A DNA stretch of 64,000 nt from Candidatus Nomurabacteria bacterium RIFCSPLOWO2_01_FULL_41_18 (GTDB taxonomy: Bacteria > Patescibacteriota > Minisyncoccia > Phycocordibacterales > UBA9973): assembly GCA_001785865.1 (NCBI GenBank), contig MFUZ01000006.1, forward strand, positions 45,674-109,673. Direction: 5' to 3'. Shown piece after piece: positions 11,493 through 28,402 of this stretch. The position numbers were made by a program, and so were the translations under genes. Below the pieces are notes generated by a model. That model was given only the letters and a program-made list of their open reading frames with translations. It made no database searches and had not been told where the DNA came from. Position 1 is the first letter of the stretch; each line of letters starts with the position of its first letter.

Positions 11493-11520
11493 AAAAATCC
11501 CCTTTTCAAAGGGGATTTTT
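11493..11520 (+). terminator. Rho-independent terminator after rpsI
   Basis: Hairpin AAAATCCCC-ttttcaa-GGGGATTTT followed by a T-run. Confidence 0.7.
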
Positions 11521-11537
11521 TATGTTAAATTACTAGC

Positions 11538-12194
11538 ATGAATGACGATAAAACATCCGCCGACCCTGAAAAAGAAGAAACTGAACCCCTAGAGGCTACT
11601 GGGGTCATCAGCTCTGAGGAAGCTCAGGCTCGAAGAGGTGATTCTGCTGAATCAGATACTTCTGAAGTTTTAGAATTTGAGTTCAATGAAGATGGGGAAG
11701 AGGACTTGAAGAAAACTTTGAAGAAATTCAGAGCGGACTTAAAGAAATGTAAAGCTGAAAAAGAGGAATATCTGACCGGCTGGCAGAAGGAGCGAGCAGA
11801 ATTTGCGAATTATAGAAAAGGGGAAGACGACCGCAAGGCCATGCTCTCCGAATCCATGCGCGAGCGGATATTGAATCGTTTTCTCTCGGTGATGGATAGT
11901 TTCAATATGGCTTTCGCCCACAAAGAATCATGGGACAAGGTGGATGAAAATTGGAGAAAAGGAGTGGAGTATATTTACGGACAGATGAATACTATCTTTG
12001 AAGAATACGGTGTAAAAGCGATCGGAGTCGAGGGAGAAATTTTTGATCCGAATATTCATCAGTCCATGGAGCTAGTGGCGACAGACAAAAAAGAGCTTGA
12101 TCATACAATCGCCACTGTGATCCAGAAAGGTTATAAGCTCGGGCCACGAATAATGCGGGCGGCGCGGGTAAATGTGTATGAGTATAAGGAATAA
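11538..12194 (+). CDS. grpE: nucleotide exchange factor GrpE
   Basis: Acidic N-terminus. Coiled-coil KAEKEEYLTGWQKERAEFANYRK. C-terminal beta-domain FDPNIHQSMELVATD resembles GrpE FDPnlHeA. Confidence 0.8.
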   Translation: MNDDKTSADPEKEETEPLEATGVISSEEAQARRGDSAESDTSEVLEFEFNEDGEEDLKKTLKKFRADLKKCKAEKEEYLTGWQKERAEFANYRKGEDDRKAMLSESMRERILNRFLSVMDSFNMAFAHKESWDKVDENWRKGVEYIYGQMNTIFEEYGVKAIGVEGEIFDPNIHQSMELVATDKKELDHTIATVIQKGYKLGPRIMRAARVNVYEYKE

Positions 12195-12225
12195 AATCTA
12201 TTCTAATATTCTATAGAATTATAGA

Positions 12226-13881
12226 ATGAAAAATGAAAGACAAATTTGTGAACATTGTAAGCAAAACTTCGAAATATCGGAGGAGGAATTAAATTTATAT
12301 AAAAAAGTGGGAATTGAATTACCCACGTTGTGTTTTTTTTGCAGAATAAAATTGCACTTATCTTTTTGGATGTTTGGAAAATTTCGCAAAGGGAAGTCTG
12401 ATCTTTCTGGGGAAAGCTTGATCACTGTTTTACCCGCAAGCACTAGGTATCCTATTTATACTCTTACTGAATGGCACAGCGATAAATGGGATGCTATGGG
12501 TTACGGGGTAGATTATGATCCTAATGTTCCATTTTTCAAACAGTTGCAAGAACTACAAGAAAAAGTTCCTCACCCACACCAAAATGGCACCAAAAATACA
12601 AAATGCGATTGGTGTGATGATGTTTGGAATTCTAAAAATTGCTATCTGTCTCGTTCAATGGAAGAATGTGAGGATTTGTTTTATTCATATAGAAATGTAA
12701 AGGTAAAAAATTCCATCGATGCGACCATTTGTTTCAATTGCGAGAAGTGTTATGACTGTGGAGATTGTCACAATTCTTACAAGCTTTTTTACTCAAGACA
12801 TTCTAGAGATTGTATAGAATCAAGCTTTTTATACGATTGTAGGAATTGTCAGAACTGTTTTATGAGTTGGAATCTTCGCAATAAGTCCTATTGTATAGAA
12901 AATGTTCAATATACCAAAGAAGCCTATCAAGAAAAACTAAAATCTTTTCAACTAAATTCATATAAATCTTTACAAACTTTCAAAAAACGTTTTGAGGAAT
13001 TAGCACAAAAAGAAGCAGTTCATAGAGAAAATTTCAATTTTAAGGCACATAATTCTAACGGAAATTATTTATCAGATGTAAAAAATTGCCACAATTGCAA
13101 TACAATAAATGATTCTGAGGACAGTTATAATTGTATTAGGGGAATGAAACATAAATCAAACATAGATGCCAATGGTTGTTGGTATGTCGAATTGATAGGA
13201 AATTGTGCCAATTGTGTAAATTCTTATGCGCTCAAATACAGTAATTGGTCTTCTTCGCGGTATTCGGAATATTTAGATGTATGCATTGAGTGTGATTATT
13301 GTTTTGGTTGTGTTGGGCTTAAGAAAAAGAAATACTGTATTTTAAATAAACAATACACAAAAGAAGAATATGAGGTCTTGAAAGATAAAATTATTGAAGA
13401 TATGAAAAAAAGAGGGGAATATGGAAAATTCTTGCCATATTCTATGAGTGCTGGACCTTTTAATTTTTCAAACGGATTTTTCTACTTTCCAGAAACTAAA
13501 AAGGAAGGCGTTTTAAAATTAGGGGGTTATTGGGAAGATGTCGATGAAAGTCATATAGAAGGAATGCAGACAAATGAATTACCAGACTCTATAAAAGATG
13601 TTCCTGACACCATCATTACTCAAGCACTCATCTGTCCAGAGACTGGTTGGCGTTTCAATATAGCTCAGAATGAACTTTCTTTTTACAAAGCAAACAATAT
13701 TCCACCGCCCAGATATCATTTTGATGTCAGGACCAAAAATCAGTTAAAATATTTAACTGTTCTTCAATCTTACCCATATAAATGTTTTTACTGTAAAAAA
13801 GATATAATGGCTTATTATCCGAGCGAATGGGGATATGAGAAAATAGCATGCGAAGAGTGTTATAAACAAAATATAGCTTGA
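12226..13881 (+). CDS. cysteine-rich multi-zinc-ribbon protein, paralog 1 (zf-trcl-like termini plus central Cys ladder)
   Basis: N-terminus CEHCKQNFEISEEELNLYKKVGIELPTLCFFCR fits the zf-trcl pattern C-x2-C...F..FY....P..C-x2-CR. Central CxxC/CxNC repeats (CFNCEKCYDCGDC, CRNCQNCF, CANCVNSY, CIECDYCFGCVG). C-terminal ribbon ELSFYKANNIPPPRYHFDVR and CEECY. One of five paralogs in the window. Confidence 0.6.
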   Translation: MKNERQICEHCKQNFEISEEELNLYKKVGIELPTLCFFCRIKLHLSFWMFGKFRKGKSDLSGESLITVLPASTRYPIYTLTEWHSDKWDAMGYGVDYDPNVPFFKQLQELQEKVPHPHQNGTKNTKCDWCDDVWNSKNCYLSRSMEECEDLFYSYRNVKVKNSIDATICFNCEKCYDCGDCHNSYKLFYSRHSRDCIESSFLYDCRNCQNCFMSWNLRNKSYCIENVQYTKEAYQEKLKSFQLNSYKSLQTFKKRFEELAQKEAVHRENFNFKAHNSNGNYLSDVKNCHNCNTINDSEDSYNCIRGMKHKSNIDANGCWYVELIGNCANCVNSYALKYSNWSSSRYSEYLDVCIECDYCFGCVGLKKKKYCILNKQYTKEEYEVLKDKIIEDMKKRGEYGKFLPYSMSAGPFNFSNGFFYFPETKKEGVLKLGGYWEDVDESHIEGMQTNELPDSIKDVPDTIITQALICPETGWRFNIAQNELSFYKANNIPPPRYHFDVRTKNQLKYLTVLQSYPYKCFYCKKDIMAYYPSEWGYEKIACEECYKQNIA

Positions 13882-13924
13882 TACACATTTCAGCCATGGC
13901 GTAAATGTGTAAATTAAAAAAAAT

Positions 13925-15655
13925 ATGGAAACAAAAAGTGAAAATAGAATATGCAAAAACTGCAAAAAAGATTTTACGATAGAATCTGAGGATTTTAATT
14001 TTTACGAAAAGATAAAAGTTACACCGCCTACGTGGTGTGTAGATTGTAGGCAGCAAAGGAGATATGCTTGGAGAAATGAGCGAACTTTATATAGGAGAAA
14101 TTGTGATCTTTGCGGTAAAAGTACTGTGACTATTTATTCCTCCAATAAACATTACAAAGTTTATTGTAATGAGTGCTGGTGGGGAGATGGCTGGGATCCT
14201 GCCTCGTACGGTCGGGATTTTGATTTTACCAGGCCGTTCTTCGAGCAATTTGCAGAATTACAGCGCGATGTCCCGCGCATGGCACTTTTGAATAAAAGAA
14301 GTGTTAATTCCGAATATACAAACCATTCGGGGGATACTAAAAATTGCTATCTTTCTTTTGTGGCTTGGGAAAGTGAAAATATAATGTATAGCAATTGGGT
14401 TCAAAAATCGCGCGACTGCATGGATTGTGCTTATGTTCGAGAAAAGGGGGAACGTCTCTATGAAACTATTGATTCTAGAACCTCCTATCAATGTCAATAC
14501 AGTACCTTCTTAAAAGATTGTTCAAATTGCTATTATTGTTACGATTGTCGTGGATGCAATAATTGTTTTATGTCTTCAAATTTGCGTAATAAAAGCTATG
14601 TATTTAAAAATAAACAATATACTCGGGAAGAATATTTAGAAAAAATGAAAGAATACGAAATGTCTTCTTTTGTTGTTCGTGAAGGATTAAAAAAAGAATT
14701 TACAGACTTGCTAAAACAAGATAGTATTCATCGCTATGTTTTTAGTGAAAGAAGTATAAATTCTAATGGTTCTCTACTCTTTGATTGTAAAAAAGTTGCA
14801 AAGTCTTTTGAAGTTGATAAAAGTGAAGATTGTAAATATATTTACGGAGCTACTGAAATCAAAGATTCCATGGATGTATATCACATAGGTTTAAATACAA
14901 CTGAGCTTTGTTATGAACTTCAAGGGTGTACAAGGACGTCAAACTGCCAATTTTGCCACCTTTGTTATGACAACATGAATGTGATGTATTCTGACACTTG
15001 TCAAAATAGCCAGAATCTTTTTGGATGTGTCTCGGTGAAAAAGGGAGACTATATGATTTTTAACAAAAAATATAGTAAAACAGATTATGAAATATTAAAA
15101 AATAAGATTATTGAACATATGAAGAAAACAGGGGAGTATGGAGAATTTTTCCCTCCACAAATTGCGCCAGTTTATTATAATGAAACGCAGGGCAATCTAT
15201 ATATGCCGATGACGAAGGAAGAAGTGCTGGCAAAAGGCTGGCAATGGGAGGATAATATTCCCGGAACTTTTGGCAAGGAAACGATATCCAGTGGCTCTAT
15301 GCCAGATAAAATAGAAGACGTACCAGATAATTATTTAAATGAAATTTTTTCTTGTATGGAATGTTCCAAGAATTATAATATCACCAAAAATGAGCTTCTT
15401 TTCTATCGAAAGGAAAATTTACCGTTTCCAAGGCGATGCCCGAATTGCCGTTACAAGCGGAGGTTTGACATGCGTCCCGCCAGAAGATTATGGCATCGGA
15501 CTTGTATGTGTAGTCAAAATCATATTGGCCACAGTGGGTCCCCTCGCCTAGAAACAGGCGGGGCAAGTTGCCAAGTCGAATTTGAGACGTGCTACGCGCC
15601 CGAAAGACCAGAAAAAGTTTATTGTGAAAGCTGTTACAATAAGGAAGTATATTAG
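13925..15655 (+). CDS. cysteine-rich multi-zinc-ribbon protein, paralog 2
   Basis: ICKNCKKDFTIESEDFNFYEKIKVTPPTWCVDCRQQRR (zf-trcl-like), followed by a second ribbon CDLCGKS...CNECW. Central CSNCYYCYDCRGCNNCF. C-terminus CMECSKNYNITKNELLFYRKENLPFPRRCPNCRYKRR ... YCESCYNKEVY. Confidence 0.6.
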   Translation: METKSENRICKNCKKDFTIESEDFNFYEKIKVTPPTWCVDCRQQRRYAWRNERTLYRRNCDLCGKSTVTIYSSNKHYKVYCNECWWGDGWDPASYGRDFDFTRPFFEQFAELQRDVPRMALLNKRSVNSEYTNHSGDTKNCYLSFVAWESENIMYSNWVQKSRDCMDCAYVREKGERLYETIDSRTSYQCQYSTFLKDCSNCYYCYDCRGCNNCFMSSNLRNKSYVFKNKQYTREEYLEKMKEYEMSSFVVREGLKKEFTDLLKQDSIHRYVFSERSINSNGSLLFDCKKVAKSFEVDKSEDCKYIYGATEIKDSMDVYHIGLNTTELCYELQGCTRTSNCQFCHLCYDNMNVMYSDTCQNSQNLFGCVSVKKGDYMIFNKKYSKTDYEILKNKIIEHMKKTGEYGEFFPPQIAPVYYNETQGNLYMPMTKEEVLAKGWQWEDNIPGTFGKETISSGSMPDKIEDVPDNYLNEIFSCMECSKNYNITKNELLFYRKENLPFPRRCPNCRYKRRFDMRPARRLWHRTCMCSQNHIGHSGSPRLETGGASCQVEFETCYAPERPEKVYCESCYNKEVY

Positions 15656-15697
15656 AAATACTTATAACTCTGCTATCGCAGAAACATAAGTAAAATT

Positions 15698-17410
15698 ATG
15701 GAGTATAAAAACGCAAACAAAATATGTCAAAGTTGTCAGAAAAATTTTACGATAGAACCTGATGATTTTGGGTTTTACAAAAAGATAAAAGTCCCTCCGC
15801 CGACTTTTTGCCCGGAGTGTAGAAGAATGCGACGTTTTGCTCTCACAAATGAAACTGTGCTTTATAAGCGTAAATGTGATTTAACAAGGAAAGACATTTT
15901 TAGCATGTATCCTGAAAATACATTATTCCCAGTTTATGAGACAGATGCTTGGTATTCGGACGAGTGGGATCCGTATGAATACGGAATGGATTTTAATGAA
16001 AATAAACCGTTTCTCGAACAGATCCTAGAGCTCCAAAGTAAAGTACCTAGAATGTCGCTTGTGCGACAAGGTATGGCAGTAAATAGTCCTTATAATCATA
16101 GAGTCTCTGATCCAAAGAATTCTTATATGACTTTCCGGGCTTCTTATCCAGAAGATTGCTTATATTTGTATAATGGTAAATATACAAAAGACTGTGTTGA
16201 CTGTGCTTGGATCTTTGATTCTGAGCTTTGTTATGAATGTGTGAATGTTGAAAATTGTTATAATGTTAAATTTAGCCAAGAAAGTAAAGATTGTCGAGAT
16301 TCGTATTTCATTTATGCATGTAAAAATTGTTCAAATTGTGTTGGTTGTGTCAACCTTGTTAGTCAAGAATATTGTATTTGGAATCAGCGTTATTCTAGAG
16401 AGGAATATTTTAAAAAATTGGAAGAACTTAAATTAAATACTAGCTCAGGGATCAAAGAAATAGAAAAAAAATTACAAGAATTTAGGAAAAAACTTCCTCA
16501 ACGATACATGAGAACTGGAAAATCTGAGAATGTATCTGGAAATTGGTTTTCTAGTTGCAAAAATGTCCATGAGTCTTTTGATTGTGTTGACGTAAAAGAT
16601 GGCAAGCATTTATTTATGGTTTTTGGAGCTGAAGATTGCATGGATTATTACGAATGGGGTAATAAGGCTGAGCAGATTTATGAATCAGTGAATTGTGGGC
16701 TCAATATCACTCGGCTTTATTTTTGCAATCAATGCTGGATGGGGGCGACGGATTTGTATTACTGCAATACTTGCCCTGGAGCACGGAATTGTTTTGGCTG
16801 TGTTGGTCTTAAAAAGGGGGAGTACTCAATTTTAAATAAAAAGTATAGTAAACAGGAATATGAGACATTAAAAGAAAAAATAATTAAACAAATGAAAGAG
16901 GTGCCTTTCATAGACAAGCGTGGTTTGAAATATTATTTCGGAGAGGGTTTTCCGGAAATGTTTTCCGATTTTGCTTACAATGAGACTATTGCTAACTATC
17001 ATTTTCCATTATCTAAAGAAGAAGCTTTGTCGCGGAGATATACATGGAGAGATGTAGACAAAAAAGATTATAAAATAACCATAAAATCAAAAGATTTATC
17101 CGAGACTATTAAAGAAGTGGATGATTCTGTATTGAATGAGATTATAGAGTGTGAGGATAAAAAAAATACAGAATCCGTAGGGGCTTTTCGAATTACACAA
17201 AATGAATTAAATTTTTATAAGAAAATGAATTTACCTCTACCTAAAGCTTGTTTTAATATTCGTCATTTACGCCGGATGAACAAACGTCCACCTCTACGGA
17301 TGCTTAAAAGGAATTGTTCCAAATGCGAGATAGAGACTGAAACAGTCTATGACGAAAATTATGCACCGATAATTTATTGTGAACAATGCTATCAGCAAGA
17401 AGTTTACTAG
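15698..17410 (+). CDS. cysteine-rich multi-zinc-ribbon protein, paralog 3
   Basis: ICQSCQKNFTIEPDDFGFYKKIKVPPPTFCPECRRMRR. Central CKNCSNCVGCVN and CFGCVGLKKGEY. C-terminus ...YCEQCYQQEVY. Confidence 0.6.
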   Translation: MEYKNANKICQSCQKNFTIEPDDFGFYKKIKVPPPTFCPECRRMRRFALTNETVLYKRKCDLTRKDIFSMYPENTLFPVYETDAWYSDEWDPYEYGMDFNENKPFLEQILELQSKVPRMSLVRQGMAVNSPYNHRVSDPKNSYMTFRASYPEDCLYLYNGKYTKDCVDCAWIFDSELCYECVNVENCYNVKFSQESKDCRDSYFIYACKNCSNCVGCVNLVSQEYCIWNQRYSREEYFKKLEELKLNTSSGIKEIEKKLQEFRKKLPQRYMRTGKSENVSGNWFSSCKNVHESFDCVDVKDGKHLFMVFGAEDCMDYYEWGNKAEQIYESVNCGLNITRLYFCNQCWMGATDLYYCNTCPGARNCFGCVGLKKGEYSILNKKYSKQEYETLKEKIIKQMKEVPFIDKRGLKYYFGEGFPEMFSDFAYNETIANYHFPLSKEEALSRRYTWRDVDKKDYKITIKSKDLSETIKEVDDSVLNEIIECEDKKNTESVGAFRITQNELNFYKKMNLPLPKACFNIRHLRRMNKRPPLRMLKRNCSKCEIETETVYDENYAPIIYCEQCYQQEVY

Positions 17411-17447
17411 TATCTCTAATTCGCGCGAATAGGCGAATAGTTTAAAC

Positions 17448-19190
17448 ATGAATCAAGAAACCAGAAATTGTCAAAACTGCAAAAAAGATTTCACGATAGA
17501 GCCAGATGATTTTGGATTTTACACAAAGATCAAAGTCCCTCCGCCCACTTTTTGTCCTGAGTGCCGGAAAATTCGGCGGCTAGTGTGGCGCAACGAACGG
17601 GCATTGTATCGAAACAAATGTGATCTTTGTAAAAAAAATATTATTGCAATGTACAATGAGTCTGTACCTTTTCCTGTGTATTGTCACGCCTGCTGGTTAG
17701 GGGATGGATGGGATCCGCTTTCCTTCGGGCAGGATTATGATTTTTCACGTACATTTTTTGAACAATACAAGAAATTTTCCAAAATTGTGCCGAGAATAGC
17801 TCTTTGGCAGAGAAATTCTATAAATTCGGATTATTCGAATATGGTAGGTGAGTCCAGGAATGTTTACTTGTCTGTTTCCGTAGTGAAAGGATCTGAAAAT
17901 GTTTTTTATTCAAAATCTACAGATAAGTCTAAGGACATAATAGATTCTCTGAATATTATTGGGTCTGAAAATTTATATGAAAACATCGAAGGGCAAAGCA
18001 ATTATAATTCTCAATATCTTTTGCTTTGTCGGAGCTGTATAGATTCTTATTATCTGATCGATTGCGTAAACTGCAGCAATTGTGTCTTATCGAATAATTT
18101 ACGCAATAAACAGTTCTGTATTCGCAACGAGCAGTATACCAAAGAGGAATATCAAAAAAAGATTGATAAATTAAACTTAAAAAGCAGAGCTTCACGCGAG
18201 AAGCTCTGGAGAGAATTTGAAGAGGTGAGGGGCCACGCTATTTATCGTTTTGCCAATTTTACTAAATGTGTAAATGTTACAGGGAATAATCTTTTAAATG
18301 CAAAAAATTGCCAAAATTGTTTTGATGCTTATAACACAGAGAATATAAAATATGGCTACAGGGCGTTTGATTTAAAGGATTGCATGGATCTGGATTATGC
18401 AGCGTGGTCGGAGTTGCTATATGAATATACAACGGGCTCTTTGAATGACTATGATGTTAAGTTTTCTTACTCCGCAATGGATTCGGTGAGAAATGCTGAC
18501 TATACGGAGTTTTGTCGCAACTGCGTCAATATTTTCGGTTGTATTTCTCTCAACAATAAAGAAAATGCGATTTTTAATAAAGTTTATTCCAAAGAAGAAT
18601 TTGAAAAACTGCGCAACGAAATTATCAAGCAAATGAATGATTTACCATATAAAGACAAAGGAGGGAGGATTTATAGGTATGGTGAATTTTTTCCGATTGA
18701 GCTTTCTCCTTGGGCTTATAATGAAACTACAGCGCAGGAAGTCGCTCCTATTACCAAAGATTTTGCGGAAAGGAATGGATTTCCTTGGCGAGAACCGGAA
18801 GTTAAAAATTTTAATATTACGATTCCCGCAGAAAAAATTCCAGACAATATAGAAAAAGTAAATGAGAGTATTTTACAAGAAGTTCTGGAATGTGCTCATA
18901 AAGGAAAATGTGACCAACAATGCAACACAGTGTTTCGTTTGACTGATTATGAACTGAAGTTTTACAAACAACACAAGATTCCGTTGCCGATTCTTTGTCC
19001 GAATTGCCGTTATTATGAAAGAATCAAAATTATACCAGCATTTAAATTATTCGACAGGAGATGTATGTGTGATAAATATAACCATTTTCATGGAGCAGAG
19101 AAATGCACTTTAGAATTTGAAACTCCCTACGCGTCAAACCGGCCGGAAATAGTCTATTGCGAAAAATGTTATCAGCAGGAGGTGTATTAG
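17448..19190 (+). CDS. cysteine-rich multi-zinc-ribbon protein, paralog 4
   Basis: CQNCKKDFTIEPDDFGFYTKIKVPPPTFCPECRKIRR. Central CVNCSNCV. C-terminus LKFYKQHKIPLPILCPNCRYYER ... YCEKCYQQEVY. Confidence 0.6.
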   Translation: MNQETRNCQNCKKDFTIEPDDFGFYTKIKVPPPTFCPECRKIRRLVWRNERALYRNKCDLCKKNIIAMYNESVPFPVYCHACWLGDGWDPLSFGQDYDFSRTFFEQYKKFSKIVPRIALWQRNSINSDYSNMVGESRNVYLSVSVVKGSENVFYSKSTDKSKDIIDSLNIIGSENLYENIEGQSNYNSQYLLLCRSCIDSYYLIDCVNCSNCVLSNNLRNKQFCIRNEQYTKEEYQKKIDKLNLKSRASREKLWREFEEVRGHAIYRFANFTKCVNVTGNNLLNAKNCQNCFDAYNTENIKYGYRAFDLKDCMDLDYAAWSELLYEYTTGSLNDYDVKFSYSAMDSVRNADYTEFCRNCVNIFGCISLNNKENAIFNKVYSKEEFEKLRNEIIKQMNDLPYKDKGGRIYRYGEFFPIELSPWAYNETTAQEVAPITKDFAERNGFPWREPEVKNFNITIPAEKIPDNIEKVNESILQEVLECAHKGKCDQQCNTVFRLTDYELKFYKQHKIPLPILCPNCRYYERIKIIPAFKLFDRRCMCDKYNHFHGAEKCTLEFETPYASNRPEIVYCEKCYQQEVY

Positions 19191-19207
19191 GGATAAAATA
19201 ACTTAGT

Positions 19208-19241
19208 AACGTAATAGCAACGGCCGTTGCTATTACGTTAT
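19208..19241. terminator. bidirectional terminator between convergent genes
   Basis: Perfect palindrome TAACGTAATAGCAACGG|CCGTTGCTATTACGTTA followed by a T-run. Lies between the + gene ending at 19190 and the - gene ending at 19256. Confidence 0.7.
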
Positions 19242-19255
19242 CTTGTTTTTTTACT

Positions 19256-19762
19256 TTACTCCCCAAAAGTTTCAAATAGAAATTTTTTGGTTTCATCATC
19301 TACAAATTCTGTGACTATTATCATCATCTCGGTTGTTAGTCCCAGATCCTTTTTTATGTTCGTAAAGAGATGTTCAAATGGGAAAGGGGATATCCATGCA
19401 GAATTTTTGAGGCAAACAAAGCCAGCTTTTTTCAAAAGATAACGCAAGCTCTCGCGTTCAGGTTTTCTCTCTTCCGGCAGGTCAAGGAGGATTATCCGCC
19501 AAAACCCATCCCAATTGGTATTCACTAGGTTTGTCTCGCCGTCCAGCATCAAGCTATTCAATTTGTTTTTCCCTTTCACTGTGATTTTGGCGTAGCTTTG
19601 TCTTTCAGATCTATAAATTTCAGCGCAGTTTTCTTTTACTAGGTTTTTTAGGGAACGCGAAAGAGCATAAGCGGTTTTTGCGTCCCCTTCTTTCAGATTG
19701 TATAGAGAAACTGCCGGACTTTCGGCTAGTTTTTTGAGTATTTTCTTTGAATTGCTTGACAT
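19256..19762 (-). CDS. PaaX-family-like transcriptional regulator
   Basis: C-terminal region WDGFWRIILLDLPEERKPERESLRYLLKKAGFVCLKNSAWISPF resembles the PaaX_C motif W.G.W.lv.ydiPe..r..Rd.lr..L...GfG.l.nSvWisP. The N-terminal half is compatible with a winged helix. Divergent from dnaK. Confidence 0.5.
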   Translation of the reverse strand: MSSNSKKILKKLAESPAVSLYNLKEGDAKTAYALSRSLKNLVKENCAEIYRSERQSYAKITVKGKNKLNSLMLDGETNLVNTNWDGFWRIILLDLPEERKPERESLRYLLKKAGFVCLKNSAWISPFPFEHLFTNIKKDLGLTTEMMIIVTEFVDDETKKFLFETFGE

Positions 19763-19849
19763 AGATACATCCTATCATATATACTCTCTTTATACAAGTA
19801 TTTAGTGGTCGCGAAAAAATAGTAAATTATTAAAATAACCAATAAAAAT

Positions 19850-21775
19850 ATGAGCAAAATCATAGGTATAGATTTAGGTACGACAAATTCGGCAGTTGCC
19901 ATCATCGAGGGCGGTGCACCGAAAATTATAGAAAATATCGAAGGAAATCGCACTACGCCTTCTGTGGTAGCGACTGCAAAAAATGGTGACCGCGTAGTCG
20001 GGCTTTTGGCCAAGAGACAAGCGGTGACTAATCCGGAAAATACGATTGCCGAAGTAAAGCGCCTGATGGGGCATCGTTTCGATGATCCGGAAATACAAAA
20101 AGACCGCACAACTTCGCCGTTCAAGATCGACGCGGGAGACGGAGGTGGAGTCAAAGTAAAAATGTTGGATAAATTTTATCGACCGGAGGAAATTTCTGCA
20201 ATGATCCTGCAGAAAATAAAGACTGATGTCGAAGCAAAATTGGGAGAAAAAATAACCGAAGCGGTCATTACCGTGCCAGCATATTTCAACGATGCACAAA
20301 GAAAAGCCACGAAGGATGCTGGAGCTATTGCAGGACTTGATGTGAAGCGCATTATAAACGAACCGACCGCGGCAGCTTTGGCTTATGGATTTGATAAGAA
20401 GAAAAATGAAAAAATTGTAGTTTACGATTTCGGCGGGGGAACTTTTGACGTATCAGTGCTAGAAATCGGAGATGATGTCATCGAAGTGAAGTCTACAGAC
20501 GGAGACAGCCACATGGGTGGAGGAGATATCGACCGAAAAATAATAAGGTGGATAGCGGAGGAATATAAAAAGGAATCCGGAATTGATGTGACCAAGGACC
20601 CACTCGCGCACCAGAGACTCCGAGAAGCAGCTGAGAAAGCTAAACACGAGCTTTCTACCACAATGGAAGCAGAAATAAACATCCCATTTATCACTTCAGA
20701 TGCTGGAGGTCCAAAACATCTGCTCATGAAAATGTCTAGGGCGACACTGGAAACGCTTACCAAAGATCTGATCGATCGCTCTATCGAGATTACCAAGCGA
20801 GCATTAGCAGCTTCTCCATTCAAGATGAACGAAATTAATGAGATAATCATGGTCGGAGGGCAGACCAGAATGCCAGCAATCGTTTCTGCGGTAAAGAATC
20901 TTTTTAATAAGGAGCCGAATATGTCCATCAACCCGGATGAAGTCGTGGCGCTCGGAGCCGCCGTCCAGGCAGGAGTATTGCAGGGAGATGTGCGAGATGT
21001 GCTCTTACTCGATGTCATACCGCTATCTCTCGGAATTGAAACTCTAGGAGGAGTGGCTACGAAATTGATCGAAAGGAATACTACTATTCCGTCCAGCAAA
21101 TCTCAGATATTCTCGACCGCAGCCGACAATCAAACTTCAGTAGAAATACATATTGTGCAAGGAGAGCGCCCGATGGCTTCCGACAACAAATCTCTCGGAA
21201 GATTCATCTTGGATGGTGTTCCACCAGCACCACGTGGCATGCCACAGATCGAAGTAGCCTTTGATGTAGATGCGAATGGCATACTGAATGTGACCGCGAA
21301 GGATAAGGCTTCTGGCAAAACTCAATCGATCAAAATAGAGGCTAGCTCTGGACTTAAAGATGAGGAAATTAAAAAGATGCAGAAAGATGCGGAACTGCAC
21401 GCGGAGGAAGACAAAAAGAAAAAAGAAGTTGTGGATATAAAGAATACTGCTGAAATGATTATTTATACTGCTGAAAAAGCATTGAAAGACAACGAAGCAA
21501 AGATCCCTGCGGAACTCAAAGACAGTGTAAATGCAAAAATCACTGCGCTCCGAACTGCAAAAGATGGCACTGATGCGGAGGCAATCAAAAAAGCTACAGA
21601 AGAACTTTCTTCTGAAATGTCCAAAATAGGCCAAGCCATGAATCAAAATGGCGCAGGTGCTGAGCCAACTGGCGAAGCAGGGGGAAATAAAACTCCCGAA
21701 GAACAGCCCGCCGAAGTCAAAGACGCCGAATTCAAGGAAGCAAAGAAGGACGAAGGTGAAACACCTAGGTCGTAA
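19850..21775 (+). CDS. dnaK: molecular chaperone DnaK (Hsp70)
   Basis: [23 protein letters not shown] and the full Hsp70 architecture at 641 aa. Confidence 0.97.
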
Positions 21776-21789
21776 AATTACTAAAAACT

Positions 21790-21813
21790 AAAAGCCCTCG
21801 CAAAGGGGCTTTT
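21790..21813 (+). terminator. Rho-independent terminator after dnaK
   Basis: AAAAGCCC-tcgcaaag-GGGCTTTT followed by a T-rich stretch. Confidence 0.6.
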
Positions 21814-21846
21814 AGTTTTGCCCATTTTATTGTAAAATAGTGCTAT

Positions 21847-24027
21847 ATGGATTTTCCAGACATACCTACCAATAAGGAGATAACTTATCTTGGAATTACC
21901 ACTTATCGGGACAAGAACCAGCTTTTTGGTATCAAGCGCAAAGACAGGCGCCAGCATGTTTATATTCTCGGAAAGTCCGGTACCGGTAAATCTGTGCTCA
22001 TGTTCAACATGATAATACAGAATATTAAGAATGGCGACGGAGTCTGCATGGTTGACCCGCACGGAGAAAATGTAGAAGCCATACTTTCGGCTATTCCTCC
22101 ACATCGCGTAAAAGACGTGGTTTACTTCAATCCTGCCGATGCAGACCATCACATAGGCTTCAATGTCCTCGAATTGATCGACCCCCAGTACAAGCATCTG
22201 GTAGCTTCTGGGTTGATGGGCATCTTTACGAAGATCTGGGCGAACGCCTGGAGCGCGAGAATGGAATACATTTTGAACAATGCGATCTTGGCCCTCCTCG
22301 ATACTCCGGGCACGACTCTTCTTGGTATTCCCAGAATGTTGGTGGACAAAGATTATCGGCAGAAAATAATTTCAAATCTGAAGGATCCGGTTATCAAGGC
22401 CTTCTGGGTGCATGAGTACGAAGCTTGGCAGGATAAATTCAGGAATGAAGCTATCGCTCCGATCCAAAACAAAGTCGGCCAGTTTCTTTCTACTTCCATT
22501 ATACGAAACGTCGTCGGTCAATCGAAGAGTACGATCAATATCTTTGACATGATGAACGAGGGCAAGATCTTTCTTGTGAATGTGTCAAAAGGGCGTATCG
22601 GCGAAGACAACTCGAGCTTACTCGGAGGCATGATTATCACCAAGATCCAGCTAGCCGCCATGGAGCGCGTGCGTATTCCGGAAGAATCTCGTAAAGACTT
22701 TTATCTTTATGTTGACGAATTCCAAAACTTCGTGACGGATGCTTTTGCTGGTATTTTATCTGAGGCTAGAAAATACAGGCTGAATTTGACTGTGGCGCAC
22801 CAGTACACTGCTCAGCTGGTGGTGGATAAAAGTTCGGCAGTGCGTGATGCAGTGTTTGGCAACGTCGGTACCATGATCGTGTTTCGGGTGGGCTCGGATG
22901 ATGCGGAATTTCTCGAATCAGAATTCGATCCCGAGTTCACTCCGCAGGACATAGTGAATCTGCCGAACTACAAGGTTTATCTGAAACTCATGATAGATGG
23001 CGTGACGTCCCGTCCTTTTTCAGCAAAAACTCTGCCGCAAATGGTGAAGTCTGGAAACAGGGAAATAGAAGAAGAAGTGATACGATCTTCTCGCGCGCTG
23101 TATTGCCGAAGCAAGGAAATCGTGGAGAGAGAGATAAATGACTGGAGCGGGATGTCGCTCGGCAATGATACCGACATGGGAAGCGGAGCTTTGGAGAAAT
23201 TTCCCGTAATTTGTTCCAATTGCAAAAAAGAAACAACCGTGCCTTTTAAGCCCGAACCAGGACGTCCAGTTTATTGCAAAGAATGTATTGCAAAAATAAA
23301 GTCTGGGGAAATAAAAGTTACAAAAGGTTCTGAAAATCAGATCAAGCATGACGAAACCACTTTTTTCCAGCCTCTCGCTGATTTAGGCATAGAGTTCCAG
23401 CAGAAAGACAGGGTGAAGGGTGAAGAAAAGGAAAGGTACCCGGAAAGAGTCGAGAAAAAAAAGAGCCCGACTTTTTCTGCTTCTCCTCTGCCGAACAAGT
23501 CGTTAGCCTCGGAAGCATCTCAAAGCAAACCGGGCCTATTTAGAACGATTAAAAAAGTTTTCAATAAAAGCGCCCCGTCCGTGCCGGCGAGTACTGCTCC
23601 AAAAGGAGGAGAGCCGCGAACTTTACCAGCACCCGCAAAAATTTTCCAAAGATCAGAGAGGCCTAATCAACCAAATACCAAGGAAAATGTCGCCTTGAGA
23701 GAAATATTAAATAAAGTGGTTGCCAAACCGCCTACTCAAAATGCGAACCAGCCTGTTTCAGCTCCTGTGCCCCCTCCTGCACCGGCTCCAGTTTCGCTCG
23801 ATACTCTTAAAAACCTGCCTGCGCAGGCAGGTAAAATTCTTAATCTGCCTTCTAAAGATCGCGCAGCGAGTTCTGAAGATATGAATAAGCTGAAGAACCT
23901 TATCCTAGAGAAAGAAAAAACTCCTACTCCTACTACCCCTGGCCCCGCACCCGCTTCGGCTTCTACTCCTATTCCTCAAAAACCAAAAGAAGTTCCGGAA
24001 GATGTTTTAAGAAAAATTTTGGAGTAA
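21847..24027 (+). CDS. soluble T4CP-like (VirD4/TraG/TraD-family) P-loop ATPase with C-terminal zinc ribbon and Pro/Ala-rich tail
   Basis: Walker A YILGKSGTGKS, then MVDPHGE (the DPKGE-like motif of coupling proteins). Walker B region YLYVDEFQNF, then ARKYRLNLTVAHQYTAQL (TraG-D_C-like HQ..xQL). No N-terminal TM. The C-terminus carries ICSNCKKETTVPFKPEPGRPVYCKEC plus a low-complexity P/A/T-rich tail. Confidence 0.6.
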   Translation: MDFPDIPTNKEITYLGITTYRDKNQLFGIKRKDRRQHVYILGKSGTGKSVLMFNMIIQNIKNGDGVCMVDPHGENVEAILSAIPPHRVKDVVYFNPADADHHIGFNVLELIDPQYKHLVASGLMGIFTKIWANAWSARMEYILNNAILALLDTPGTTLLGIPRMLVDKDYRQKIISNLKDPVIKAFWVHEYEAWQDKFRNEAIAPIQNKVGQFLSTSIIRNVVGQSKSTINIFDMMNEGKIFLVNVSKGRIGEDNSSLLGGMIITKIQLAAMERVRIPEESRKDFYLYVDEFQNFVTDAFAGILSEARKYRLNLTVAHQYTAQLVVDKSSAVRDAVFGNVGTMIVFRVGSDDAEFLESEFDPEFTPQDIVNLPNYKVYLKLMIDGVTSRPFSAKTLPQMVKSGNREIEEEVIRSSRALYCRSKEIVEREINDWSGMSLGNDTDMGSGALEKFPVICSNCKKETTVPFKPEPGRPVYCKECIAKIKSGEIKVTKGSENQIKHDETTFFQPLADLGIEFQQKDRVKGEEKERYPERVEKKKSPTFSASPLPNKSLASEASQSKPGLFRTIKKVFNKSAPSVPASTAPKGGEPRTLPAPAKIFQRSERPNQPNTKENVALREILNKVVAKPPTQNANQPVSAPVPPPAPAPVSLDTLKNLPAQAGKILNLPSKDRAASSEDMNKLKNLILEKEKTPTPTTPGPAPASASTPIPQKPKEVPEDVLRKILE

Positions 24028-24037
24028 ATTTGTTGAA

Positions 24038-25708
24038 ATGAATCAAGAAACTAAAAATTGTAAAAAGTGCAAGCAAGATTTTGTCTTAGATCAGAATGAT
24101 TTAGGTTTTTATGAAAAAATGAAAGTGCCCGTACCAAAAATTTGTCCGAACTGCCGTTTCAAGATGCGGGCGATGTTTAGAAATGAAACCACACTTTATT
24201 CTGGACGCAAATGCGCACTTTGTAATAATAATGTTATTTCAATGTATAATCCAAAATCTCCTTATGCTATCTATTGCTATAGATGTTTTTATTCTTCCAA
24301 GTGGGAAGCGAGGGATTATGCGATGGATTATGATGAAAAGAGATCTTTTATAGAACAGTTTGGTGAGTTACTCAAAAAAGTTCCCAAAATTACAACTTTC
24401 TTGTCAACTGGTTATGGTCTTAATGTAAATAGCGAATATTCGAATATGGCGAGTGGTTGCAAAAATTGCTATTTAGTTTTTAACACTGGGCCAGCGGAAG
24501 AAGTCTTGTACGCCCGGGGAATTAGAGATTGTCGTGACTGTGTTGATATGTATTTCGGAGTAAATGATGAACGTTGTTATGAATGTATAAATGTCCACCA
24601 GTCTTCCGGTATCCTCTCCGGTAAAAATGTTAATGGATCTGTAGATTGCTGTTTTGTGTTAAATTGTCGAAATGTGATGAATTGTTTTGGATGTGTGAAT
24701 TTAAATAATAAATCACACCATTTTTTAAATCAACCGATGTCGGGAGAAGAATACAAGAAAAAAGTAAGTGAAATTTTAGGTAGCTATAAAAAAACTGAAG
24801 AATTTAGAAAACAATTTGAAAAATTTACATTACAATTTCCAATGCGTGAGAATAATAATATAAAAACTACTAATTCAACTGGAGATTATTTGTTTGAGTG
24901 TAAAAATGTAAGAGATTCTTTCGAAATTACGAAAAGCGAAGATTGTCGCTACTTGTATTCTTCTAAAGAAATTAGGGATTCTGTTGGCACTATCGGTTAT
25001 GGGGTAAATTCGGAATGCTTATTGGAGGTAGTGGCTTCTGGACAATCCAGTAACTGCATAGGTTCTTATGGCCTCGAACACTCCAGTGATATTTTATATG
25101 GATTTTATACTTCCAAATGCCAAGACTGCATTGGTTGTGATGGGCTGAAAAATGGAAAATATTTTATTTTAAATAAACAATATGAACAAGCTGAATACGA
25201 GAGGCTCAGAGAAAAAATTATTCAAGAACTAAAAGAAAAAGATTTATATGGATTGATGATACCGCCAGAACTTGCCCCCTTTGCCTACAATGAAACGATT
25301 GCGCAAGACAGTATGCCTCTCACCAAGGAAGAAGCTTTGGCGCAGGGTTTTCGTTGGGAAGAAGACATACAAAAGACAGAAGGAAAGGAAACAGTTGATC
25401 CGGAAAACATTTCGGACCATATAAAAGATGTAAAAGATTCTATAACCAACGAGATTTTAAGATGTATAGATTGCAATAGAAACTATAAAATCATAGATCA
25501 AGAGCTTATGTTTTACAGGAAAATGAATATTCCGCTTCCTAGAAAGTGTTTTTATTGTAGGCACCGGGATCGTATTGTCAAACGTGGCCCATACAAATTC
25601 TGGAATAGGAATTGTGCAAAATGCAATATGGAGATTATGACAAATTATTCACCTGAAAGACCAGAAATTGTATACTGCGAGAAATGTTATCAGCAGGAAG
25701 TTTATTAG
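24038..25708 (+). CDS. cysteine-rich multi-zinc-ribbon protein, paralog 5
   Basis: CKKCKQDFVLDQNDLGFYEKMKVPVPKICPNCRFKMR. Central CRNVMNCFGCVN and CIGCDGLKNGKY. C-terminus LMFYRKMNIPLPRKCFYCRHRDR ... YCEKCYQQEVY. Confidence 0.6.
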   Translation: MNQETKNCKKCKQDFVLDQNDLGFYEKMKVPVPKICPNCRFKMRAMFRNETTLYSGRKCALCNNNVISMYNPKSPYAIYCYRCFYSSKWEARDYAMDYDEKRSFIEQFGELLKKVPKITTFLSTGYGLNVNSEYSNMASGCKNCYLVFNTGPAEEVLYARGIRDCRDCVDMYFGVNDERCYECINVHQSSGILSGKNVNGSVDCCFVLNCRNVMNCFGCVNLNNKSHHFLNQPMSGEEYKKKVSEILGSYKKTEEFRKQFEKFTLQFPMRENNNIKTTNSTGDYLFECKNVRDSFEITKSEDCRYLYSSKEIRDSVGTIGYGVNSECLLEVVASGQSSNCIGSYGLEHSSDILYGFYTSKCQDCIGCDGLKNGKYFILNKQYEQAEYERLREKIIQELKEKDLYGLMIPPELAPFAYNETIAQDSMPLTKEEALAQGFRWEEDIQKTEGKETVDPENISDHIKDVKDSITNEILRCIDCNRNYKIIDQELMFYRKMNIPLPRKCFYCRHRDRIVKRGPYKFWNRNCAKCNMEIMTNYSPERPEIVYCEKCYQQEVY

Positions 25709-25732
25709 GTTTTATGTTAAAATAATCCCTAT

Positions 25733-27277
25733 ATGCCAAAGCCAAATCGAGTCCAAATAATCAAATACGGACCGCCGCCGCCAGAGCTGCCCGTGTTCGG
25801 CAAGGTCAAACCGGAGGAAGTTTCTTTTATTGGACGGACCAACTACGTAGCAGCTCTCGAGGAAAAGAAATTTATTTTCGGAATCAAGAGAATAGACCGC
25901 AGACGCCATCTATATATTATCGGTAAGTCCGGCGTGGGCAAGACCAAGCTTCTAGAGTTAATGCTCCGCCAAGACATCACCTATGACCACGGGCTTTGCT
26001 TGATCGACCCACACGGGGACGTGATAGAGGCGATGCTCGACTATATTCCCAAAGAACGCATCGATGATGTCTGTATCATCGACCCTACTGATCTTGATTT
26101 TCCGGCGTCTTTCAATCCACTTGCCAATGTGGACCCATTATTTAAGTTTCAATTGACCCAAGGCCTGATCGAGGTCTTCCAGAAGCAATTCGGGGCAAAT
26201 TGGACACCACGTCTCGAACACGTCTTTCGCTTTACCTGTCTCGCTCTGCTCGACTATCCGCACGCCACCATGCGGGGAATGATTTCGATGCTGACCGATC
26301 GAAACTACCGACAGAAAGTGGTGGAATATATCACCGACGACATGGTCAAAAGATTCTTCGCAATCGAATTTGCCGATTGGTCGGAGAAATTCGACACCGA
26401 CGCCATCATTCCTTTGGTGAACAAGCTCGGGCAATTCCTATCTGATCCCTTACTACGAAACATATTCGGACAGAAGCAGAACAAGATAGATATAAGTAAA
26501 TTAATGAATGAGGAAAAGATTGTCCTCATCAATCTCTCAAAGGGCCGCTTGGGCGAAGAAAATTCTTCATTTCTCGGTTCCATATTCCTGACAAAAATAA
26601 AACAGGCCGGAATGGAGCGTGCCGCTATACCCGAGAAGGACCGTAAGGATTTTTATATCTATGTCGACGAGTTCCAAAACGTAGTGACTCAGACTTTTGA
26701 AAATATTTTGTCGGAGGCGAGAAAGTACGGGCTCAACCTCACCATGGCTCATCAGTATGTGGGGCAGATCATTACCAAAGTCCACCAAGCGGTGCTCGGA
26801 AACTGTGGTAGCATTATCACTTTCCGCGTCGGCGGAGAAGATGCGGTGAAATTGAAGCCGGAATTTGCACCCCTGTTTGATGTGAAGGATATGATCAACC
26901 TTGCGGTAGCGGAATTTTATATCAAGATGACCATCGATGGAGAGTCTTACGATCCATTTTCAGCTGAGACACTCCGAGTCTTGCCACCGACGCATCCTTC
27001 ATATAGAAAAGAAATAATCGATGCTTCTCATAAAAAATATTCAATATCCAAACATGATGCCGCGAGGCTGATCGCTGAAGAAGAGGCGACAATAATCAGA
27101 AGCGCAGAAGAAAAAGCGATAATTGAAGGAAGAGCGAAAAGAAAGGAAAAAGAAGCTAAATCCAGCGAAGCTGGATCGCCCGACGATTCTGAAGAATCGT
27201 TTAGGGAAAATGAAACTGTAGAAAAACGAAAGACGAAAGAGAATAAAACTTCCCAAGAGGCCGAGCCTATGATATAA
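25733..27277 (+). CDS. soluble T4CP-like P-loop ATPase, paralog 2 (charged C-terminal tail)
   Basis: YIIGKSGVGKT, LIDPHGD, YIYVDEFQNV, ARKYGLNLTMAHQYVGQI. Paralogous to the 21847-24027 gene. Lys/Glu-rich C-terminal tail. Confidence 0.6.
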   Translation: MPKPNRVQIIKYGPPPPELPVFGKVKPEEVSFIGRTNYVAALEEKKFIFGIKRIDRRRHLYIIGKSGVGKTKLLELMLRQDITYDHGLCLIDPHGDVIEAMLDYIPKERIDDVCIIDPTDLDFPASFNPLANVDPLFKFQLTQGLIEVFQKQFGANWTPRLEHVFRFTCLALLDYPHATMRGMISMLTDRNYRQKVVEYITDDMVKRFFAIEFADWSEKFDTDAIIPLVNKLGQFLSDPLLRNIFGQKQNKIDISKLMNEEKIVLINLSKGRLGEENSSFLGSIFLTKIKQAGMERAAIPEKDRKDFYIYVDEFQNVVTQTFENILSEARKYGLNLTMAHQYVGQIITKVHQAVLGNCGSIITFRVGGEDAVKLKPEFAPLFDVKDMINLAVAEFYIKMTIDGESYDPFSAETLRVLPPTHPSYRKEIIDASHKKYSISKHDAARLIAEEEATIIRSAEEKAIIEGRAKRKEKEAKSSEAGSPDDSEESFRENETVEKRKTKENKTSQEAEPMI

Positions 27278-27292
27278 TGGCTAAATAACCTT

Positions 27293-28402
27293 ATGAATAA
27301 AGACTATTACAACATTTTAGGTGTAAATAAAAGCGCTTCCAAAGACGAAATAAAAAAGGCTTTTTATAAGCTGGCACACAAATATCATCCTGATAAAAAG
27401 GAGGGTAACGAATCAAAATTCAAGGAAGTGAATGAGGCTTATCAGGTGCTTTCGGACGAAGGGAAACGGGCAAAATATGATCAATTCGGATCAGGTTTTG
27501 AGAATGCGCAAGGGTTCGGCGGAGGGCAAGGAGGATTTGGAGGCTTCGACGGGGCAGGCTTTGGAGGATTTCAAGGTGCAAATGTGGATTTTGATTTCGG
27601 AAACCTGAATGATATCTTTAGCGATTTCTTTTCCGCCGGAGGCGGACCAGCCTCTGGCTGGGGAGGTAATAAGGCTCGTCGCGGCCGAGACATCTCGACC
27701 GAGATCCAGATTTCTTTTTCTGATTCTATTTTTGGCATAAGCAGAAAAATTCTTATCACTAAGACATCTAATTGTCTTACTTGCCACGGTTCTAGCGCGA
27801 AGGCGGGTTCGGGAATGGTAACTTGTAAAACTTGCAATGGTCAAGGACAGATTCGTGAATCAAAAAGAACAATATTTGGAAATATTGCGAATACAAAGAT
27901 TTGTGAGGCTTGTCTAGGTGCTGGTGAAGTGCCGAAGGAGGCTTGCGAGACCTGTCGCGGCAAAGGAGTCATGCGCCGGGAAGAAGAAGTTGATATCAGC
28001 ATCCCTGCCGGTATACGAGACGGAGAGATGATCCGGATGTCGGGTTATGGCGAGGCTGTTTCCAAAGGAACAGCAGGAGACCTTTATATCAAGATAAACG
28101 TTGCCCCGCACCCTGTCTTCAAACGCGATGGCCACGACATCGTAATGAATCTGAATTTGAAACTTTCTGACGCACTCCTCGGGACAAAATATCCAATAGA
28201 AACTCTGGATGGACATATCGAAGTGACTATTCCTGAAGGCGTGGGGATAAACGAAGTTCTTCGAGTGAAAGGCAAAGGTGTGCCGATGGGGGCGAAAAAT
28301 AAGCGCGGCGACCTCCTTATCAAACTCAACATCAAACTTCCTTCAAAAATTTCTCGCAAATCTCGCGAACTTATAGCTGAACTCAAAAAGGAAGGAATAT
28401 AG
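27293..28402 (+). CDS. dnaJ: co-chaperone DnaJ
   Basis: J-domain (DYYNILGV...HPD), G/F-rich linker, four CxxCxG(x)G zinc-finger repeats and a C-terminal domain. Confidence 0.92.

Follow-up and report, generated by a model that had tools for sequence, protein, structure and literature searches.

Why should the genes of the Hsp70 chaperone system be interleaved with five cysteine-rich proteins that match no characterised family and with two ATPases resembling the motors of conjugation? The question is raised by a stretch of 64,000 nucleotides from Candidatus Nomurabacteria bacterium RIFCSPLOWO2_01_FULL_41_18 (contig MFUZ01000006.1; the whole 64-kb stretch is called the window below), in which grpE, dnaK and dnaJ are separated by genes for the paralogous proteins P1 to P5 and the P-loop ATPases A1 and A2. 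Comparison with other genomes showed that Hsp70 genes, an A1/A2 pair and P proteins make up a conserved chromosomal module of Paceibacteria-type Patescibacteria. As to what the module does, our proposal is a tentative one that could well be wrong: A1 and A2 would form a hub like the coupling complex of a type IV secretion system (T4SS), with the P proteins as adaptors or cargo, working with Hsp70.

Patescibacteria account for a large share of bacterial diversity with genomes that do not exceed about 1 Mb, and much of the core biology of these organisms has no assignment. Literature searches turned up neither the P family, with its scale and fold arrangement, nor its link to an ATPase pair or Hsp70, and no link between VirD4 and DnaK in Patescibacteria was found; the module appears to be undescribed. 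New here are the recurrence of the ATPases, P family and Hsp70 genes as one module, a confident fold for a P protein and candidate docking motifs, which make a testable system of what were anonymous 'hypothetical proteins'.

A recurrent chromosomal module

Two sets of loci were compared, 80 centred on P genes from species-representative genomes and 80 centred on ATPase homologs from metagenomes (L081–L160). The P-centred loci contained 211 P copies, with at least two copies in 54 loci and up to seven in tandem. Of these 80 loci, 31 had an ATPase gene and 24 a chaperone gene; in 12 the ATPase gene was unaccompanied by any chaperone gene. Nomurabacteria and related metagenome-assembled genomes (MAGs) repeat the order grpE-P(n)-dnaK-A1-P(n)-A2-dnaJ, and in another clade there are A2-P(3–7)-A1 cassettes free of chaperone genes. 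The neighbours of close A2 orthologs are P genes and dnaJ. The neighbourhood is thus not unique to this contig but recurs in dozens of species. When the open reading frames (ORFs) of the P-centred loci were clustered, syntenic ribosomal genes and a small PaaX_M-like ORF were the only further recurrent neighbours.

In the window itself, ORF listing reproduced the ten co-oriented plus-strand ORFs between 11538 and 28402, all at the positions originally predicted, as well as the spacing of 31–43 nt in the run from grpE to P4. The features are as follows.

11538..12194, + strand: grpE, the Hsp70 nucleotide-exchange factor (Pfam GrpE, E = 2.7e-36); opens the grpE-P1-P4 unit
12226..13881, + strand: P1, 551 amino acids (aa), which diverges most among the paralogs; degenerate in its second N-terminal and its first C-terminal ribbon
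13925..15655, + strand: P2, 576 aa, the paralog used for the structure model
15698..17410, + strand: P3, 570 aa; the degenerate ribbons are the second N-terminal and the first C-terminal
17448..19190, + strand: P4, 580 aa, with four intact ribbons
19206..19241: bidirectional terminator-like hairpin with a 16-bp stem, at the end of both the grpE-P4 unit and the PaaX-like ORF that converges on it
19256..19762, - strand: PaaX_M (Cas2-like) domain protein, 168 aa, divergent from dnaK (Pfam E = 2.8e-19)
19756..19785, + strand: promoter-like site TTGACA-18-TATACT upstream of dnaK, 11/12 consensus matches (a consensus match only)
19850..21775, + strand: dnaK (Hsp70; Pfam HSP70, E = 1e-246)
21784..21819: palindromic hairpin with a 14-bp stem in the dnaK/A1 gap, attenuator- or terminator-like
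21847..24027, + strand: A1, TrwB/VirD4-like P-loop ATPase, 726 aa
24038..25708, + strand: P5, a 556-aa paralog between A1 and A2
25733..27277, + strand: A2, TrwB/VirD4-like P-loop ATPase, 514 aa
27293..28402, + strand: dnaJ, with J domain, CXXCXGXG zinc domain and C-terminal domain (Pfam E = 2e-43)
28407..28979, + strand: multi-pass membrane protein, 190 aa, 4 nt past dnaJ; no Pfam match

The gaps between grpE, P1, P2, P3 and P4 are 31, 43, 42 and 37 nt, and those between dnaK, A1, P5, A2 and dnaJ are 71, 10, 24 and 15 nt. A further hairpin lies upstream of grpE at 11500–11514. A search allowing three mismatches found no CIRCE/HrcA operator (controlling inverted repeat of chaperone expression) in the window, and no hrcA-like ORF was present among the Pfam-scanned ORFs or the ORFs listed in 9000–31000. 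For these reasons the PaaX_M protein, which keeps its position in 18 related loci, is a candidate and may be the local heat-shock regulator.

The surrounding window is ordinary core chromosome, with alaS, ribosomal protein genes and rpoA just upstream and with cysS, dnaB, aspS, scpAB, mraY-ftsW-murG-type genes and gltX elsewhere. Among the Pfam-scanned ORFs of the window, to which all the family negatives below refer, there was no match to a T4SS component, VirB4, a relaxase or a phage family. Sequence comparison found no further copy of the P or ATPase family in the window. Scans of the window for tRNA genes and Rfam families gave no matches. The P genes have a GC content of 33–36% with low GC at first codon positions (GC1), and their low GC is thus attributed to amino-acid composition. 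At third codon positions (GC3) the five P genes, alaS and aspS lie at 0.27–0.35 and grpE, dnaK, A1, A2, dnaJ and rpoA at 0.41–0.52. A foreign origin of the P genes was rejected since their GC3 is that of the housekeeping genes alaS and aspS. These values suggest codon bias of the highly expressed type in the ATPase genes and its absence from the paralogs. Also in the window are a 744-aa NHL-repeat beta-propeller protein (2411–4645, +), a 399-aa ORF with a weak FtsA-like match (4687–5886, +) and a 432-aa ORF with no Pfam match (5891–7189, +); the latter two are syntenic in 15–16 related loci.

Membrane proteins recur beside the ATPase homologs. An N-terminally membrane-anchored protein of ∼430 aa lies directly upstream of, or is fused to, the ATPase homolog in 41 of the 80 ATPase-centred loci (for example L150 8704–10002, L104 4496–5821 and, fused, L131 8891–12022), and a second membrane protein of 180–240 aa is found in 14. 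Neither has a Pfam or NCBIfam match or a homolog in the window. Upstream of the membrane-protein/ATPase pair, 23 loci (within L094–L156) carry a ∼350-aa protein with Sigma70_r4 and HARE-HTH domains (L150 7573–8619, for example), itself usually preceded by secD/secF. The 190-aa membrane ORF just downstream of dnaJ has homologs in 13 loci, in two of which (L042 and L044) they lie inside a P array with no dnaJ nearby; the protein is possibly a membrane partner, though the evidence is weak. The idea of a soluble cytoplasmic module fits the window, but in about half of the ATPase-centred loci the ATPase relative is linked to the ∼430-aa membrane-anchored protein. A minority of the 160 loci have neighbours with roles in metal homeostasis, namely CutA1 (12), a CopA-like P-type ATPase (5), Nramp (3) and a CsoR-like protein (2); L033, L042, L044, L085, L090–L094, L110, L112 and L114 are among them.

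The ATPases and the P proteins

A 425-aa alignment of A1 with A2 shows 46% identity. Both carry a Walker A motif (GKSGTGKS at aa 42–49 of A1, nt 21970–21993; GKSGVGKT at aa 64–71 of A2, nt 25922–25945), DPHGE or DPHGD, YVDEFQN as Walker B, and ARKY.LNLT[VM]AHQY. The motifs that had been predicted are all present, but the residue before YVDEFQN is L in A1 and I in A2 and is never Y. TrwB_AAD_bind, T4SS-DNA_transf, TraG-D_C and DUF87/HerA all scored above their Pfam cut-offs in both proteins, with E values for A1 of 5e-10, 2e-6, 3e-5 and 1e-8, respectively; the DUF87 scores of the two ATPases were 35.5 and 24.3 bits. The best NCBIfam scores, to the TraD and VirD4-like CD1115 models, were 49.5–51.1 bits, far under cut-offs of 250–650. 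A profile made from A2 orthologs and A1 had TrwB as its sole match in the PDB (E = 0.006); a search of the PDB with A2 as a single sequence gave no matches.

The AlphaFold model of A2 is of moderate quality (predicted local distance difference test, pLDDT, 73.5) and has a helical insert at about aa 135–245, which in the model resembles the all-alpha domain of coupling proteins. Foldseek placed TrwB first (E = 9e-14, TM-score 0.56–0.63 normalised on TrwB, 400–430 columns aligned), followed by Cagbeta, HerA (E = 4e-11) and DotL; DndH was also among the best matches. The original prediction of coupling-protein-like ATPases is upheld by these comparisons, as coupling-protein models are consistently ahead and HerA, the rival assignment it had raised together with FtsK, is a close second. 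By sequence and model, A1 and A2 are best described as coupling-protein-like, divergent members of a known superfamily whose orphan status has been noted but not explained in the literature (PMC12102498). That 2025 survey counted 5,713 VirD4-like genes in 2,918 Patescibacteria genomes, about two per genome, of which 148 were near virB4, and its authors considered exaptation possible. As had been predicted, A1 and A2 have no membrane anchor, the maximum 19-residue Kyte-Doolittle hydropathy being at most 1.13; over A1, A2 and P1 to P5 together it is at most 1.17, with no transmembrane segment or signal-like N-terminus.

A1 contains a CxxC-x17-CxxC zinc ribbon at aa 451–483 (nt 23197–23295), matched by zf_Tbcl_2 (E = 3e-13, 49.6 bits against a cut-off of 27) and TIGR04272 (E = 3.5e-14). 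This zf_Tbcl_2 ribbon is common to A1 and the P proteins. Past it runs a long tail rich in P, A and S, whose C-terminal residues are the conserved EVPEDVLRKILE (nt 23989–24024). Among A1 orthologs the C-terminus is fixed as E[VI]PEDVLRKILE and the preceding tail is hypervariable. A2 has a charged tail, of low confidence in the model, that ends EAEPMI-COOH (nt 27257–27274), the orthologs ending [EQ]P[ML][IV], for example EPLI. A hypervariable tail with a fixed end is the pattern typical of tethered docking motifs, and the two C-termini are candidates for such motifs. A2 orthologs are 84–93% identical across many species, similar to DnaK.

The P proteins align with one another over their full length at 30–40% identity (E values of 1e-71 to 1e-153), and each has 31–37 cysteines. 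They belong to a large family: at a clustering level of 50% identity an exhaustive profile search returned 5,490 clusters for E ≤ 1e-3, of which 2,282 reached E ≤ 1e-30, and a word-indexed search gave more than 6,000 matches. All source names of the homologs are 'hypothetical protein', including that of a protein of Candidatus Nomurabacteria bacterium RIFCSPHIGHO2_01_FULL_42 that is 100% identical to P2. Genomes have up to at least 11 copies (one MAG, with 5 + 6 on two contigs). The sole P locus titled outside Patescibacteria, L061 (JBHEKU010000072.1, a 2.6-kb contig labelled Ignavibacteria), is probably a binning contaminant; some titles are generic. A scan of viral contigs gave a single partial match, thus P is not a phage family.

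The P proteins could be assigned to no characterised family using Pfam, NCBIfam, the PDB, Foldseek or PADLOC, as had been anticipated. No Pfam or NCBIfam model covers their central ∼400 residues, and these databases revealed no J domain, Hsp33 or other known chaperone domain in P1 to P5 or in 79 family members. The P2 sequence had no matches in the PDB and the family profile gave marginal LIM-finger matches. PADLOC, used to look for anti-phage defence systems, did not match P, and gave weak mad8 and HerA matches for A1/A2 with no partner components, so that no defence system was assigned.

At the ends of the proteins the predicted zf-trcl-type ribbons were largely borne out. Two CxxC pairs at the spacing of the zf_Tbcl family occur at both ends of P2, P4 and P5, as well as in A1, and at E ≤ 0.01 zf_Tbcl_2 was found in 33 and zf_Tbcl in 21 of the 79 family members. 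The window copies, however, stay below the gathering cut-offs (16.6–18.4 bits for P2 and P5 against 24–27). The architecture said to be shared by all five paralogs applies to P2, P4 and P5, whereas in P1 and P3 two ribbons of the four, the second N-terminal and the first C-terminal, are without their cysteines. Likewise the conserved terminal CYQQEVY does not extend to P1, which ends CYKQNIA; across the family 130 of 231 copies end in E[VI]Y (EVY in 109, EIY in 21). The ribbon cysteines C63/C81/C84 and C480/C505/C508 co-vary in an all-or-none manner (r of 0.8–1.0), which is how metal sites behave, and zinc binding is predicted. The CxxC-x17-CxxC domain has been shown experimentally to bind zinc in small proteins of M. 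mazei (PMC12704099). The P ends are basic (isoelectric point, pI, of the ribbons ∼8.8–9.0) and the whole proteins near neutral; a DNA-mimic role for the beta-helix described below was rejected on the latter ground.

A confident AlphaFold model of P2 was obtained from 124 diverse family members (pLDDT 91.2, predicted template modelling score 0.91). The N-terminal half comprises two ribbons (1–90), a short helical link, beta-helix I (118–232) and a helical cap (233–267); the C-terminal half comprises beta-helix II (268–382), a helical cap, an ordered extended segment (403–475) and two ribbons (476–576). Both beta-helices are narrow, with 12 residues per turn, so that the central ladder of CxxC motifs is a beta-helix in the model and not a string of zinc ribbons. 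Foldseek comparison of the P2 model with the PDB gave generic beta-helix matches only, with TM-scores of 0.23 or less and none significant. Ladder cysteines occupy every third position of the beta-helix, and we infer from this period-three pattern that their side chains face inward. Family-wide each ladder site is cysteine in 15–90% of members and otherwise Ser, Val, Ile, Leu, Ala or Thr. The only well-conserved rung is the last of beta-helix I (C208/C211/C214/C217), where CxxCxxCxxC is found in 66 of the 124 members. Our reading, from sequence and model, is that the ladder cysteines are mainly small residues lining a narrow beta-helix in a paralog-specific pattern. As to the metal-stapled solenoid once considered, the model shows a solenoid, but across the family the ladder cysteines are not conserved as sets; paralog-specific metal sites may nevertheless occur.

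Family-wide, conservation is highest in the ribbons and links and lowest in the beta-helix bodies and first cap. Within the P2 orthogroup, on the other hand, the beta-helices are conserved as strongly as the ribbons (0.85–1.0 for ladder cysteines in 120 orthologs), and conservation of P orthologs about equals that of GrpE. Orthology across species is positional: P1 follows grpE, then P2, and P5 follows A1. Positional P1 orthologs with 56–81% identity follow grpE in at least 11 loci, and P5 orthologs hold the same position in L002, L014, L016, L030, L040 and L106. Taken together, these sequence comparisons indicate that P1 to P5 are ancient, subfunctionalised paralogs under purifying selection and not fast-evolving conflict genes.

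A proposed mechanism and its alternatives

In the mechanism proposed, A1 and A2 would form a coupling-complex-like ATPase hub freed from the T4SS, and P proteins would be recruited to it by the flexible tails of A1/A2 and by the A1 zinc ribbon. The P proteins would act as specificity adaptors or, alternatively, would be dedicated cargo or clients, a reading suggested by ends that are conserved and bodies that are paralog-specific yet conserved among orthologs. Unfolded polypeptide would be delivered or received by DnaK-DnaJ-GrpE. Relatives of the ATPases come with a membrane protein, either fused to them or encoded just before them, and for this reason the hub may act at the membrane. The proposed logic would resemble the assembly of adaptors and chaperones on the DotL tail and the docking of SecB on the zinc-finger tail of SecA. 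If the coupling idea is true, a conjugation motor has been reused in a new way and Hsp70 has a new class of partner. A fuller version is doubtful, namely a T4SS-independent, Hsp70-coupled machine, encoded by ∼2% of the genome, in which the TrwB-like pair engages the P family and threads or delivers unfolded polypeptide at the membrane, each paralog specifying a client or site; if this is true, chaperone-linked translocases of such a kind would be a new class. There is also a real chance that the system is more distinct than a variant based on coupling proteins.

Several points weigh against the hub proposal. The mechanism is drawn wholly from gene order and domain sharing. Among 44 P-centred loci of at least 15 kb, 17 have no ATPase or chaperone gene close by, and most distant (A1-like) ATPase homologs have no P gene nearby. 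The A2 model is only moderate (pLDDT 73.5) and HerA matches it nearly as well as TrwB does (E = 4e-11). The hairpins after P4 and after dnaK suggest that the region is not one simple operon, and linkage to Hsp70 genes, strongest in one clade, could be inherited synteny. Lastly, a cultured Saccharibacterium does not need its coupling-protein homolog for epibiotic growth (PMC12102498).

Some of these points would also follow if the genes were simply unlinked neighbours in a stable, highly expressed region, the Hsp70 interleaving being inherited synteny and the link between P and ATPases perhaps real. The concentration of chaperone linkage in one clade, the 17 long P-centred loci just mentioned, the presence of a chaperone gene in just 12 of 46 ATPase-centred loci of at least 8 kb, and the hairpins that set dnaK apart from its neighbours are all as expected on that account. 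So is the ordinary GC3 of the P genes beside the raised GC3 of the chaperone and ATPase genes, from which expression levels probably differ. Against it, adjacency to Hsp70 genes occurs in at least three arrangements, that of the window, dnaJ-TM-TM-A2-P in L104 (TM, transmembrane protein) and P arrays-A2-dnaJ in L038, L060 and L072. In L150 an hrcA-like-grpE-dnaK-x-dnaJ operon lies ∼4.5 kb upstream of the ATPase gene and divergent from it, with secDF, sigma-like and TM genes between. The gaps in the window are also very short, 10–24 nt around A1-P5-A2-dnaJ and 31–43 nt from grpE to P4. On balance mere neighbourhood is unlikely. The claim that the system is wired into an Hsp70 operon thus stands in that the linkage recurs, but it is clade-restricted and many P arrays and ATPase genes lie away from chaperone genes.

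The P proteins might instead be exported cargo that leaves by a Sec-independent route, Hsp70 keeping them unfolded, the ATPases feeding a membrane channel and the ladder oxidising outside, where it would staple the narrow beta-helix as happens in the beetle antifreeze protein. The membrane protein fused to or preceding ATPase relatives, the small multi-pass membrane gene that accompanies the cassette and the conserved P C-terminus would suit such a route. Tandem paralogs beside a coupling protein also recall the Bartonella virD4-bep locus. Genomes of the candidate phyla radiation (CPR) are, moreover, enriched in an MdbA-like disulfide oxidoreductase (PMC6744442). However, the P proteins have no signal peptide and each conserves four zinc ribbons of intracellular type. 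Cysteine pairs with the i, i+6 spacing of the Tenebrio molitor antifreeze protein (TmAFP) are depleted in the ladder (z = -4.8), and no ladder pair co-varies at r ≥ 0.5 across the family. P orthologs are strongly conserved, unlike typical effectors, and no T4SS component was matched among the Pfam-scanned ORFs of the window. Given these results, export seems distinctly improbable.

A role in metal handling is no easier to accept, although each P protein has 31–37 cysteines to offer. The P proteins would buffer, store or chaperone zinc, copper or iron, with Hsp70 and the ATPases loading and unloading them, loosely as HscA/HscB act on IscU. The CxxCxxCxxC rung, the 0.85–1.0 conservation of ladder cysteines within the P2 orthogroup and the CutA1, CopA-like, Nramp and CsoR-like genes near a minority of cassettes are consistent with this. 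The ladder cysteines are, however, replaced singly by Ser, Val, Ile, Leu or Ala and do not come and go as all-or-none sets. Adjacent pairs and quartets are in weak excess (quartets z = 3.3, not phylogeny-corrected), and the every-third pattern tracks the strands of a beta-helix that is well packed in the model. Metal-related neighbours are uncommon and, in small genomes, might have arisen by chance. Such a role is thus rather improbable.

Similarly, A1/A2 could be DNA or RNA translocases and the P proteins nucleic-acid binders whose basic ribbon pairs are spaced by a rigid beta-helix. TrwB, HerA and DndH as best fold matches, ribbon ends with a pI of ∼8.8–9.0, the Sigma70_r4/HARE-HTH gene upstream of ATPase homologs in 23 loci and a possible transcription-related role discussed for CxxC-x17-CxxC proteins by their authors (PMC12704099) all agree with this, but it leaves the repeated adjacency to Hsp70 genes unexplained, the P proteins are near neutral overall with beta-helices not charged like DNA binders or DNA mimics, and no nuclease, relaxase or competence protein was matched in the window, so that we consider it hardly probable.

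Comparison with known systems

The closest known relatives of A1 and A2 are the type IV coupling proteins (TrwB of R388, VirD4, TraD, Cagbeta and DotL), with which they share a P-loop domain carrying a helical insert, scores above three coupling-protein Pfam cut-offs, and TrwB as both best fold match and sole PDB profile match. Unlike coupling proteins, they have no N-terminal transmembrane domain, no T4SS or relaxase match nearby in the window and scores below the NCBIfam TraD/VirD4 equivalog cut-offs, and they are a conserved core-chromosome pair adjoining Hsp70 genes, A1 with a zinc ribbon. The tail of TraD docks TraM and that of DotL carries adaptors, and the C-terminal motifs of A1 and A2 are likened to these. 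In the Legionella complex DotL-DotM-DotN-IcmSW-LvgA, and in SecA with its zinc-finger tail and SecB, a C-terminal extension of the ATPase recruits adaptors or chaperones, a zinc-binding element included. This is a working analogy only and not homology, for here the chaperone is the general Hsp70 and no secretion channel is nearby.

HerA and FtsK proteins (HerA-NurA, defence HerA, DndH) belong to the same superfamily, with DUF87 above cut-off and weak PADLOC matches to HerA and mad8. Coupling-protein models and TrwB, however, score A1/A2 better than HerA on every measure, and no NurA, Sir2, DUF4297 or other known partner of HerA systems was matched in the window.

The P proteins in their terminal modules, and A1 at aa 451–483, resemble zf_Tbcl (PF13451) and zf_Tbcl_2/CxxC-x17-CxxC (PF23477, TIGR04272). 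The P copies in the window differ from these families in scoring under the Pfam gathering cut-offs and, in P1 and P3, in having lost some cysteines. Unlike the small stand-alone CxxC-x17-CxxC proteins (PMC12704099), the ribbon pairs of P bracket a beta-helix core of ∼400 aa.

In its narrow beta-helix with 12-residue coils that core is like TmAFP, curli CsgA and ryegrass ice-binding protein, the cysteines of P being stacked in a ladder. The P proteins differ from TmAFP and other narrow beta-solenoids in having no sequence relationship to them (5–11% identity), no signal peptide and no conserved i/i+6 cysteine pairs. Unlike that of TmAFP, the beta-helices of P are capped by alpha-helices and set between zinc ribbons.

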